This document shows positions 50,293 through 54,595 of a stretch of DNA of 64,000 bases, one piece after another (within the stretch, counting starts at the first letter, position 1; every line of letters begins with the position of its first letter). Origin of the DNA: Escherichia coli (GTDB taxonomy: Bacteria > Pseudomonadota > Gammaproteobacteria > Enterobacterales > Enterobacteriaceae). The DNA lies in the NCBI RefSeq assembly GCF_003334815.1, contig NZ_QOWO01000007.1; one strand, given 5' to 3'. The notes under the pieces were generated by a model. The model worked only from the letters and a program-made list of their open reading frames with translations, was not told the origin of the DNA and searched no databases. The position numbers and the translations under genes are program-made.

Positions 50293-50439
50293 CAAGGACA
50301 TCCTTATAGCAAAAGGGGGAAAATGAATAATGCAAAAATTGCCGCTAAAAGAGAAGTGTTTAACAGCAACGGCTAATTATCATCCAGGAATACGATATAT
50401 AATGACGGGATATAGCGCTAAGTATATATATTCATCTAC

Positions 50440-52425
50440 TTATGCGCGCTTCAGATAGCGTTTATACCAGCGTTCGAAGGCGACGGCGGGCATCGGTTTG
50501 GCAAACAAAAATCCTTGCCGCTCATTGATCCCGTTCTTGGTTAAAAAAGCATCTTCCTTTGCACTCTCTACACCTTCGGCGATCACCTGAAGATTCAATG
50601 CCTGGGCCACAGCGACGATCGCCCGGACCAGTGACTGCGAGACAGGTTGTTTGTGAATATCTCGAACAAAAACCTGGTCAAGTTTGATGGCATCGATCGG
50701 AAAGCGCGCCAGTTGCGAAAGTGAAGAGTAGCCGGTACCAAAATCATCCAGATGCACTTGCGCACCTAGTTGGCTAAATTGTTGAATAACAGACAGTGCC
50801 AGTTCATCATTCTCAATCAGACAACTCTCTGTCAGTTCAACATCTATAGGGCAGTATTCAAAATTGAGTTCCTGGAGAACCTGTTTCAGGGCGGTGAAAA
50901 TGGTTTGATCGGCGAGCTGACGTGCAGAAATATTTACCGCCACTCGCAGGTTTATGCCTTTATCCCGCCACTTTGCCACCTGGCGTACGACATCGAGAAT
51001 CACCCAACGGCCTAAAGGCACAATTAGCCCTGACTCTTCGGCGTAGGAAATGAAGTCCAACGGTGGAATCAACCCACGTTCAGGTGACTGCCAACGTACT
51101 AGTGCTTCCAGACTGCGCACTTCGCCACGCCAGGTGATTTTCGGTTGATAGTGAATAACCAACTGATCGTTTTCCAGTGCTTTACGCAAGTTGGTATCCA
51201 GCCAGAGATATTCAAATACCCGTTGATTCATTTCTGGGGTAAAAACGCAAAATTGTCCTCGTCCGCCTTCCTTCGCTGTGTACATTGCTGTGTCGGCGTG
51301 ACGAATAATAGCCGTGCTGTCTGAACCATGTTCGGGAGAGAGTGCAATACCTACTGAACAGCTGGTATAAACTTCAATTAAACCAATGCGAAAGGGGAGC
51401 CGTAAGCGGGTCAAAATTCGTGATGCCATTGCTTCCAGCGCGCTTTGTGAGGTGTTGGATGCCAGTACCAGAAACTCATCCCCACCTGGACGCGCCAACA
51501 CCTGGTCATGTTCGAGACAGCTTAAAATAGCCAATGACACGTCGCGTAATAACTGGTCACCAAACAAATGCCCATAGGCGTCGTTGACCTTTTTGAAATT
51601 ATCCAAATCAAGATACACAACCCCAACTTTATTGTTATCTGCATGATTAATAGCGTGATCGATTAAATCCTGCATTGCGTTACGATTCGGCAGTCCGGTG
51701 ATACTGTCGGTATTTGCCAGAATACGCAGTCGCTCCTGAGCGCGGCGCTCTTCGGTAATGTCGGTGCCGGAACAGATTAAAAAAATCTCGTTTTTGCCAC
51801 TGCCGCTGTGGACAAATTTATTGCGAAACAGAAACAGCCGCTGGCCTTTACATGTTGGTATCCACAGTTCGACTTCATATGCATTGCCGCTTCGAAAAAA
51901 TACACGGTTATTGCGCCTGGATGCCGCAGCTTCACGACGGCTCATAAACAGTTTAAACACGCTTTGCCCAATGACGTCGTGTTCTTTCAACCCTGTGTAA
52001 TCTTCACATAACCGATTGAAGCGTTGGATATTCCCCCGGCTGTCGAGAATCACTATTGCGGAATGTGCTTCAGAAACTACCTGCTCAGCAAAGGAAAGCC
52101 CGTGTGATAAATCACGAGCAACCGCCGGTGTGTCATGCCATGCAGACGCGTTGCCAGCCCATTCCCGTTTATTGATTTTTCGTCCTACCAGATGCACAGA
52201 AAGATCGCTTTCATCGACGGTCAGACTCATCATCAGGCTGGAGGTGATGACCGTCATTTCCCTGATGCGAGCAGCCTGTTCGGCAGATAACTGCAATGTA
52301 CGATCAGGTTCTGTGGTTTCGGTGGTAGAAAAGCGCAAAACATCGCTGCTTTCCGTCAACCGCCAGTATGGATTGTGCGATCCGAGAAAGTTGTACAACG
52401 TTGTGGACTCCCTAACGGTTTTCAT
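50440..52425 (-). CDS. pdeR: c-di-GMP phosphodiesterase (PAS-GGDEF-EAL)
   Basis: 661 aa; GGDEF and EAL motifs present; formerly yciR/gmr. Confidence 0.93.
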   Translation of the reverse strand: MKTVRESTTLYNFLGSHNPYWRLTESSDVLRFSTTETTEPDRTLQLSAEQAARIREMTVITSSLMMSLTVDESDLSVHLVGRKINKREWAGNASAWHDTPAVARDLSHGLSFAEQVVSEAHSAIVILDSRGNIQRFNRLCEDYTGLKEHDVIGQSVFKLFMSRREAAASRRNNRVFFRSGNAYEVELWIPTCKGQRLFLFRNKFVHSGSGKNEIFLICSGTDITEERRAQERLRILANTDSITGLPNRNAMQDLIDHAINHADNNKVGVVYLDLDNFKKVNDAYGHLFGDQLLRDVSLAILSCLEHDQVLARPGGDEFLVLASNTSQSALEAMASRILTRLRLPFRIGLIEVYTSCSVGIALSPEHGSDSTAIIRHADTAMYTAKEGGRGQFCVFTPEMNQRVFEYLWLDTNLRKALENDQLVIHYQPKITWRGEVRSLEALVRWQSPERGLIPPLDFISYAEESGLIVPLGRWVILDVVRQVAKWRDKGINLRVAVNISARQLADQTIFTALKQVLQELNFEYCPIDVELTESCLIENDELALSVIQQFSQLGAQVHLDDFGTGYSSLSQLARFPIDAIKLDQVFVRDIHKQPVSQSLVRAIVAVAQALNLQVIAEGVESAKEDAFLTKNGINERQGFLFAKPMPAVAFERWYKRYLKRA

Positions 52426-52619
52426 GATGCATATCCTCCGGTTAACAGCGGAGTCCGCGGTTAAATAAAAGGAACAACATGACTTACATGAAATTAACGG
52501 CGGCTAAACGCATTGTTTTTTTTATATATTTATTTGTAATCCAGTTTTGGAAAAACGCCAGTTTTCAAACGAAAGTCAGTTAAAAAATCTGCCTGGATAT
52601 AACGAAGGTAGAGCGGGGA

Positions 52620-52650
52620 AATAAACGGCCCATCCATGAGGAATGGGCCG
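52620..52650 (-). terminator. rnb intrinsic terminator
   Basis: minus strand cggcccattcctcatggatgggccg followed by tttatttcc. Confidence 0.7.
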
Positions 52651-52660
52651 TGAAAGGAGA

Positions 52661-54595
52661 TTACGCGACCGGGCGCGCAATAATGCTGCGGGTTTCCATG
52701 CGGACTTCGGCAATAGTGACGTCAATAACGTCAGTCACTTTGTAAACCGTTTCACCTTTAATTTGTACAGTGCCGTTTTCCTGGCTGCAAACCAGTTCAT
52801 CGCGCACAGCGTGTAAGAAAGGTGCCGGAATAAAGGCGATAGCGCCGTTATCAACCAAACGAACACGCATGCCGCCACGGCTGATATCGACAATTTCCGC
52901 TGCGAAACGGGTGTCGGTCCCGGCTTTGTCTTTCAGGAAGCGTGCGTATAACCAGTCACCAACATCACGTTCTGCCATCCGGTTGAGACGGCGACGCTCG
53001 GCCATTTGGACAGTGATTTCATCCTGTGGGCGCGTCGCAGTTTCGCCTTTGATAACCGCTTTCAGCAGACGGTGGTTGATCATGTCGCCATATTTACGGA
53101 TCGGCGAAGTCCAGGTGGCGTATGCTTCCAGACCGAGGCCAAAGTGAGGACCGGGTTCAGTGCTAATTTCAGCAAATGACTGGAAGCGACGAATGCGGCT
53201 GTCGAGGAAACCAGTTGGTTGCGCGTCCAGTTCACGACGCAGTTTGCAGAAACCGTCCAGCGTGAGCACTTCTTCGGCATCGACATGCAGACCGTGCGTT
53301 TTCAGCAACGCTGCCAGCGCGTCGGCATTCGCCGGATCAAAGCCCATATGCACGTTATAGATGCCAAAACCGAGCTTATCGCGCAGTACGCGGGCCGCAC
53401 AAATGTTAGCGGCAATCATCGCTTCTTCGACGATACGGTTGGCAATGCGACGAGGCTCGGCGACGATATCCAGCACTTCACCTTTTTCACCGAGAATAAA
53501 GCGGTAATCCGGGCGATCTTTAAACACCAGTGCGTGGTTATGACGCCACTCGCCGCGGCGTTGGCAAATTTGCGCTAGCAAACGGACTTGTTCGGCAATT
53601 GCTTCACTTTCAGGCTGCCAGTCACCGGTATTTTCCAGCCAGTCAGAAACCTGGTCATACACCAGCTTTGCTTTGGATTCGATGGTGGCGGCAAAGAATT
53701 CGATATTATCTTCAATGGTGCCATCAGCGGAGAGCGTCATGCGGCATGCCAGTACCGGGCGGACTTCATTGGCGCGCAGTGAGCAGAGATCGTCAGAAAG
53801 CTCGCGAGGCAGCATAGGGATGTTGAAGCCAGGCAGATAGTTGGTGAATGCGCGAATTTTCGCGGCTTTGTCCAGCTTGCTGCCTTCAGCAATCCACGCG
53901 GTTGGATCGGCAATCGCCACAATCAGCTGAAGTTTGTCATCCGGCAACGCCTTAGCGAAAAGGGCGTCATCCATATCTTCTGTGCTGGCACTGTCGATGG
54001 TGACAAAATCCAGCGCGGTCAGATCTTCACGAACCAGACCTTCATCGAGCATTTCGGTAGCGACGCCGTCTGGTGCTTCTTTTTCCAGATTATGGCGTGC
54101 AAGGGTAACCCACCACGGTACAAAGTGATCGTCACCAAAAGTGATGTATTGTGTCAGTTCTGCATAGAAAGAACGATCGCCTTTCAGCGGATGACGGCGC
54201 ATTTCGGCAACCGCCCAGTCGCCTTCTTTAAACTCGTGGTTCAGGCCACGGGCTGCGCGGCAAGGAATGGCGTCTTTTAAGAGTGGATGATCAGGAACGA
54301 TGGCCAGACGGTCATTTTTGCCCTGAACCTTACCCACGAAACGAGTCAGGAACGGTTCAACCAGTTCTTCTGGCTCTGCGGATTCACGTTCTTTTTCACT
54401 GTGGATCACCGCGATAATTCGGTCGCCATGCATGACTTTTTTCATCTGCGGCGGCGGAATGAAATAACTTTTTTGCGCGTCGACTTCCAGGAAGCCAAAG
54501 CCTTTTTCTGTGGCTTTTACCACCCCTTCAGCGCGTGGCGTCTGGGAATGCAGTTGCTGTTTAAGCTGCGCTAGCAGCGGGTTGTCCTGAAACAT
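52661..54595 (-). CDS. rnb: exoribonuclease II
   Basis: 644 aa [38 protein letters not shown]. Confidence 0.97.

Follow-up and report, generated by a model that had tools for sequence, protein, structure and literature searches.

The DNA analysed here, referred to as the window, is a stretch of 64,000 nucleotides from Escherichia coli. In the window, pdeR (50440-52425) and rnb (52661-54595) are both encoded on the minus strand and are separated by a gap of 235 nt, in which an ORF of 34 codons is located on the plus strand. According to the window sequence and its translation, this ORF (52479-52583) starts with the ATG at 52479, ends with the TAA at 52581-52583 and encodes MTYMKLTAAKRIVFFIYLFVIQFWKNASFQTKVS. 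It is divergent from pdeR, whose start codon lies at 52423-52425. An SD-like AAGGAA (52469-52474) is located 4 nt ahead of the ATG, or 5 nt when only the core AAGGA is counted. Furthermore, a terminator scan placed the intrinsic terminator of rnb, a hairpin of 11 pairs followed by TTATTTCCCC, at 52625-52651 on the minus strand. The distance from the 3′ end of the ORF to this hairpin is 42 nt, so that, in the direction of rnb transcription, the ORF indeed follows the terminator. The coordinates, the translation, the SD-like site, the divergent orientation and the position relative to the terminator had all been given in a preliminary description of this DNA, and each of them was confirmed. At the other end of pdeR, a 42-aa ORF on the plus strand (50330-50458) corresponds to the annotated small-protein gene ymiD (b4772), which is convergent with pdeR and shares 19 nt with its 3′ end.

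An exact look-up showed that the amino acid sequence of the 34-codon ORF is identical to that of UniProt YMIB_ECOLI, 'Putative protein YmiB'. In the genome of MG1655 (NC_000913.3), ymiB (b4672, 'putative protein YmiB') is found at 1346796-1346900 on the plus strand, flanked by pdeR and rnb. PGAP labels the window ORF as hypothetical protein WP_000221855.1, and RefSeq additionally lists YP_002791239.1. Because it matches the annotated ymiB exactly, the ORF was already known and is not a new gene. It has the same 34-aa sequence, position and strand as ymiB, which the databases label 'putative' or 'hypothetical', and is thus the annotated but unverified K-12 gene itself, differing from it in nothing. 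The preliminary description had presented the ORF as a small-ORF candidate with weak evidence; the ORF is real and the caution was justified, but the annotated ymiB/b4672 had not been recognised. The paper that named ymiB is reportedly that of Hemm et al. 2008.

To see how often such an ORF arises by chance, the 235-nt pdeR-rnb gap was shuffled 5,000 times with preservation of dinucleotides. A complete ATG ORF of at least 34 codons was present in 30-31% of the shuffles, and 2.3% still qualified when an SD-like 4-mer was required 4-11 nt upstream. For a single region the latter value is unusual, yet many such combinations are expected over the intergenic DNA of a whole genome. On the minus strand, a 35-codon ATG ORF without SD-like site (52530-52637) overlaps the 3′ half of ymiB and enters the rnb terminator, which illustrates how easily ORFs are formed in the DNA of this gap.

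The encoded peptide had also been described as having a short hydrophobic core. Hydrophobic residues are indeed present, but codons 12-24 of ymiB consist of 62% T, and hydrophobic peptides result from each of the three sense frames, with a mean Kyte-Doolittle value of 1.2-1.9. The hydrophobicity of YmiB is for that reason a by-product of base composition. The longest uncharged run, IVFFIYLFVI, comprises 10 residues, or 13 when extended up to W24, and is bounded by R11 and K25, whereas ~18-20 residues are needed for a single-pass membrane helix.

We then determined the integrity of the ymiB frame within E. coli. The locus was found in 5,423 of 5,426 complete genomes, with an identity of 97-100%. 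Alleles were counted as exact matches among ~5,424 records using a 91-nt core query, in which one mismatch lowers the identity to below 99%. The K-12 type allele, with an intact frame, was found in 3,711 records. An allele in which the T8 homopolymer at codons 13-15 (52516-52523) is shortened to T7, combined with the substitution R11H, was found in 1,020 records, and an allele with the nonsense mutation Q22* (codon 22, CAG, 52542-52544), also combined with R11H, in 315. The tract varies between T7, T8 and T9 among strains, and both T7 and T9 break the frame. Other alleles were present in ~380 records; three of three that were sampled were frameshifted through T7 or T9, where single T7 or T9 alleles in K-12-like backgrounds are possible homopolymer assembly errors. 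Overall, the frame is broken in at least 25% and intact in at least 68% of the 5,424 E. coli records. The preliminary description had named interruptions of the orthologous frames by stop codons or frameshifts as evidence that would speak against the candidate, and both are found here, as is a frameshift in E. albertii (see below).

An alignment of divergent alleles showed an intact frame in K-12, HS and O111. In ST131 and AVS0225, T8 is changed to T7 and R11H is present, and in O157:H7 codon 22 is changed from CAG to TAG, again together with R11H. All polymorphisms inside ymiB in the aligned E. coli alleles are frameshift, nonsense or non-synonymous changes, and none is synonymous. In agreement with frame loss, PGAP calls ymiB frameshifted or truncated (pseudogene) in ST131, AVS0225, O157:H7, B19374, 210221272 and E30, and in strain 17MR471 an ISApl1 element is inserted inside ymiB (L007, 517-1491). 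Changes were also noticed in the surroundings. In O111 strain RM9322, an IS1203-family element truncates pdeR (L006, 1-346). In the HS and O157 alleles, the stem of the rnb terminator carries GAATGG instead of GGATGG, which converts a G-T wobble to an A-T pair, and the loop is changed as well; the hairpin is retained.

For a comparison with other species, the rnb-pdeR region was taken from 80 species-level genomes, in which the synteny of both genes is widely kept, and 58 intergenic regions were extracted. Three divergent Escherichia lineages could be aligned over the entire intergenic region. One divergent lineage harbours a 34-aa version of ymiB with a frameshifted tail, and another a 40-aa version. 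In E. albertii, the homopolymer is a T7 tract and the frameshifted product ends after 19 aa, and a fourth Escherichia lineage has a T6 tract plus a deletion. Both the ATG and an SD-like AAGG(A/T) are retained in each of the four full-length Escherichia sequences; outside E. coli, the SD-like site of this genus reads AAAGGT. In Citrobacter and Salmonella arizonae, ~14 codons are common with ymiB; starts and stops differ, the lengths range from 10 to 49 aa, internal stops interrupt two of these in-frame ORFs, and one of them lacks a start. Past Escherichia, Citrobacter and Salmonella, no similarity to the ymiB ORF was detected in the 58 intergenic regions. When 1.84 billion representative proteins were scanned in full with HMMER, six matches were obtained, namely five variants of the ymiB locus and an unrelated repeat protein, and NCBIfam holds no family matching YmiB. 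The neighbouring pdeR is apparently disrupted or strongly diverged in Escherichia sp. MOD1-EC7003 (L081, 5150-5250) and in S. arizonae (L030, 5196-5904); both gave only partial tblastn matches to pdeR, and the upstream block described below is kept in both.

Across Escherichia species, the ymiB region is 87-98% identical, compared to 54-85% for its flanks. Against three other Escherichia species, ymiB showed a pS of 0-0.08 and a pN of 0.026-0.078, and hence a pN/pS of ~0.7-1, a ratio based on only 2-8 substitutions per comparison. In the same genomes, pS was 0.37-0.40 and pN/pS 0.02-0.03 for rnb, and pS was 0.47-0.60 and pN/pS 0.05-0.06 for pdeR. With ~18 synonymous sites in ymiB, ~7-10 synonymous differences are expected if these sites are neutral, and 0-1.5 were observed. 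Even the sequence 3′ of the frameshift in E. albertii is still 92-98% identical. When ymiB is judged as a small protein, the frame is not preserved in orthologues and purifying selection on the protein is not seen. Conservation that is equal at all codon positions suggests a functional non-coding sequence, although the counts are small and an overlapping protein is possible: overlapping coding and regulatory roles would constrain the synonymous sites too, so that a pN/pS of ~1 is compatible with a protein.

The conservation is concentrated in a 43-nt block without indels (52502-52544), which extends from Escherichia to Citrobacter and S. arizonae with 81-98% identity. In Citrobacter and S. arizonae, the block is 81-93% identical, compared to ~35-55% for the remaining part of the ymiB ORF. 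On the strand of pdeR, the block has the core AAAAAAAACAATGCGTTTAGCC, and the motif AAAACAAT-N-GTTC/T is the best-conserved part of the ymiB DNA. In the window this motif is AAAACAATGCGTTT (52506-52519, minus strand); it lies 94 nt ahead of the start codon of pdeR and corresponds to the reverse complement of ymiB codons 10-14. We searched the intergenic regions for the pattern AAAACA[AGC]N2-8GTT[CT], which was chosen post hoc on phylogenetically related sequences. Of 57 species, 29 harbour it in the orientation of pdeR, without exception between −86 and −100 relative to the pdeR ATG; shuffles gave 0.2 on average and the opposite orientation gave 3. Genera harbouring the motif include Enterobacter, Lelliottia, Leclercia, Franconibacter, Yokenella and Superficieibacter. 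Outside Escherichia and Citrobacter, no consistent in-frame ORF was found over the motif, and most motif-bearing species have no ymiB-like ORF. The position of the motif relative to pdeR is thus fixed also in genera in which the ORF is missing. From these sequence comparisons, the motif seems to be a conserved element upstream of pdeR that has so far not been characterised.

In Enterobacter, Lelliottia and related genera, a TATAAT-type hexamer ends 10-13 nt upstream of the motif. A consensus scan of 52200-52800 revealed no canonical −10/−35 promoter in the pdeR-rnb gap of E. coli, and on the plus strand neither a promoter-like site upstream of ymiB nor a terminator was found. In Rfam only sub-threshold matches were obtained (best 20.7 bits versus a gathering score of 41), and these fall on the rnb terminator. 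A putative RNA structure in the pdeR leader and a putative ArcA-like box, GTTAATTTCATGTAA, were considered but not favoured, as the hairpins visible by eye are not common to the genera.

A single TSS upstream of pdeR has been reported by Kim et al. 2012 (PMC3415461, supplement 2), at U00096.2 position 1345073, with 39 reads and assigned to gmr/pdeR. Placing the corresponding 51-mer on the window located this TSS at 52732 on the minus strand, within the 3′-terminal part of rnb, 71 nt ahead of its stop codon and 307 nt from the pdeR ATG. The table of that study, which lists only TSSs assigned to then-annotated genes, has none in the pdeR-rnb gap (PMC3415461). Transcription from 52732 would either stop at the rnb terminator, giving a short RNA of ~110-120 nt, or pass through it and yield a 307-nt pdeR leader. 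Such a read-through transcript would be antisense to the entire ymiB. No further TSS was found in the literature on the pdeR/yciR promoter and gmr transcripts, and the Cappable-seq supplements contain no entry near the ymiB locus. On the transcription of ymiB itself, an RNA-seq study detected a transcript at a low level (PMC12704781).

Within the searchable literature, ymiB is mentioned in only four E. coli papers. In a TraDIS study, few transposon insertions were found in ymiB and the gene was listed as 'essential' (PMC5821084). The EcoCyc-derived labels in the same paper describe ymiB as 'putative protein' and ynbG, yobI and yqeL as 'small protein' (PMC5821084). The gene was subsequently taken into drug-target pipelines (PMC5821084, PMC8229198), in one of which ymiB had no match in ST131, and it was among the candidates of a Tn-seq study of ECA. 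In the searchable literature we found no report of a detected YmiB protein, and ymiB is absent from the list of an enterobacterial smORF survey. Since natural null alleles are present in at least one quarter of the complete E. coli genomes, ymiB cannot be essential; the common frameshift, nonsense and IS-insertion alleles exclude this.

In size, SD-like site, intergenic location and hydrophobic middle, ymiB resembles experimentally verified small proteins of E. coli such as YnbG, YobI, YqeL and YohP, which were identified through conservation and RBS models, and the names and b-numbers of all of these come from one era. Unlike the verified small proteins, however, ymiB lacks protein-type selection, its frame is disrupted in many lineages, and the hydrophobic run it encodes comprises only 10-13 residues. 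In other respects it is similar to conserved promoter or leader elements with an ORF on the opposite strand: its conservation is independent of codon position, the distance and orientation of the motif to pdeR are fixed, and −10-like hexamers are found just upstream of the motif in several genera. It differs from known elements of this type in that, in the data examined, neither a TSS nor a binding site of a regulator is mapped to the block, that no canonical −10 is evident in E. coli and that the single mapped TSS lies further upstream.

From the pattern of conservation, we consider it probable that ymiB is a dispensable, fortuitous frame lying over a conserved cis-acting, non-coding sequence that controls pdeR. 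The DNA would be conserved for its function on the opposite strand, as promoter or operator of pdeR or as the start of the pdeR leader, and the 34-codon frame would be a fortuitous reading of this T-rich control sequence rather than a protein under selection. We infer that the motif acts on pdeR expression, either as promoter DNA or as leader RNA. The element may be part of a weak, possibly stationary-phase promoter of pdeR, or part of a long pdeR leader. Because the gap in E. coli has no canonical promoter and the only mapped TSS lies inside rnb, the promoter reading is unproven.

Alternatively, YmiB might be a genuine small protein, possibly membrane-associated, that is young, restricted to Escherichia and non-essential, that overlaps the control region of pdeR and that has been lost repeatedly, namely in phylogroup B2, in O157:H7 and in E. 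albertii. The SD-like AAGGAA 4 nt from an ATG that is kept in Escherichia, the frame left unbroken in 3,711 of the 5,424 E. coli records and, as 34-aa and 40-aa versions, in two further Escherichia lineages, and the rarity of an ORF with SD-like site among the shuffles (2.3%) are consistent with this, as are the annotation in RefSeq, UniProt and EcoCyc, the low-level RNA-seq transcript (PMC12704781) and the infrequent transposon insertions. We nevertheless regard a genuine small protein as unlikely. Frameshift and nonsense alleles occur in at least 25% of the E. coli records and in E. albertii, pN/pS is ~0.7-1 with a pN above that of the neighbouring genes, and the aligned alleles contain zero synonymous polymorphisms. 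Moreover, with 10-13 residues the hydrophobic run falls short of a typical membrane helix and can be attributed to the T-rich DNA, the scan found no promoter-like site upstream on the plus strand, HMMER found no homologues elsewhere among the 1.84 billion representatives, and the searchable literature does not report a detected YmiB. In a related scenario, which we hold to be clearly improbable, ymiB is a very young de novo gene that arose within the control DNA of pdeR in Escherichia and is switched on and off by slippage between T7, T8 and T9. The gene would then be on in the examined K-12, HS and O111 strains and off in ST131-type strains and E. albertii. If true, a T-tract-switched ymiB would couple a small hydrophobic peptide to a locus of the c-di-GMP/curli switch.

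Two further explanations leave the peptide without a role. The ORF might be pure chance, as the preliminary description had considered for AT-rich DNA, and lie in an unconstrained spacer in which both strands are functionless. ORFs of this length are common in the shuffles (30-31%) and a similarly long ORF exists on the opposite strand; however, ymiB is 87-98% identical in Escherichia, compared to 54-85% for its flanks and to differences at 37-60% of the neutral sites in the neighbouring genes, the 43-nt block reaches Citrobacter and Salmonella, and the motif reaches many genera. An unconstrained chance ORF is rejected because the DNA is far better conserved than neutral sites, irrespective of codon position, and we assign hardly any probability to it. 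A plus-strand transcript could also act as a cis-antisense RNA to the pdeR leader or promoter, by transcriptional interference or by pairing, with the ORF being irrelevant. If pdeR starts at 52732, the pdeR leader would be the full complement of any plus-strand transcript arising here, and the low-level ymiB signal in RNA-seq would fit. An antisense RNA is very unlikely all the same, as neither a promoter-like site nor a terminator was found on the plus strand, Rfam gave no match, and the orientation and the fixed distance of the motif relate to pdeR and not to a plus-strand unit.

Taken together, the observation in the preliminary description was confirmed and its interpretation of the ORF was partly supported. 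As ymiB has been annotated for years, the value of the ORF as a discovery is small. The main use of these results is the clean-up of the 'essential' listing of ymiB that was carried into drug-target pipelines (PMC5821084, PMC8229198). Beyond this, the conservation pattern points to a so far uncharacterised element that would control pdeR from its upstream region, pdeR being a key switch in the regulation of curli and biofilms.
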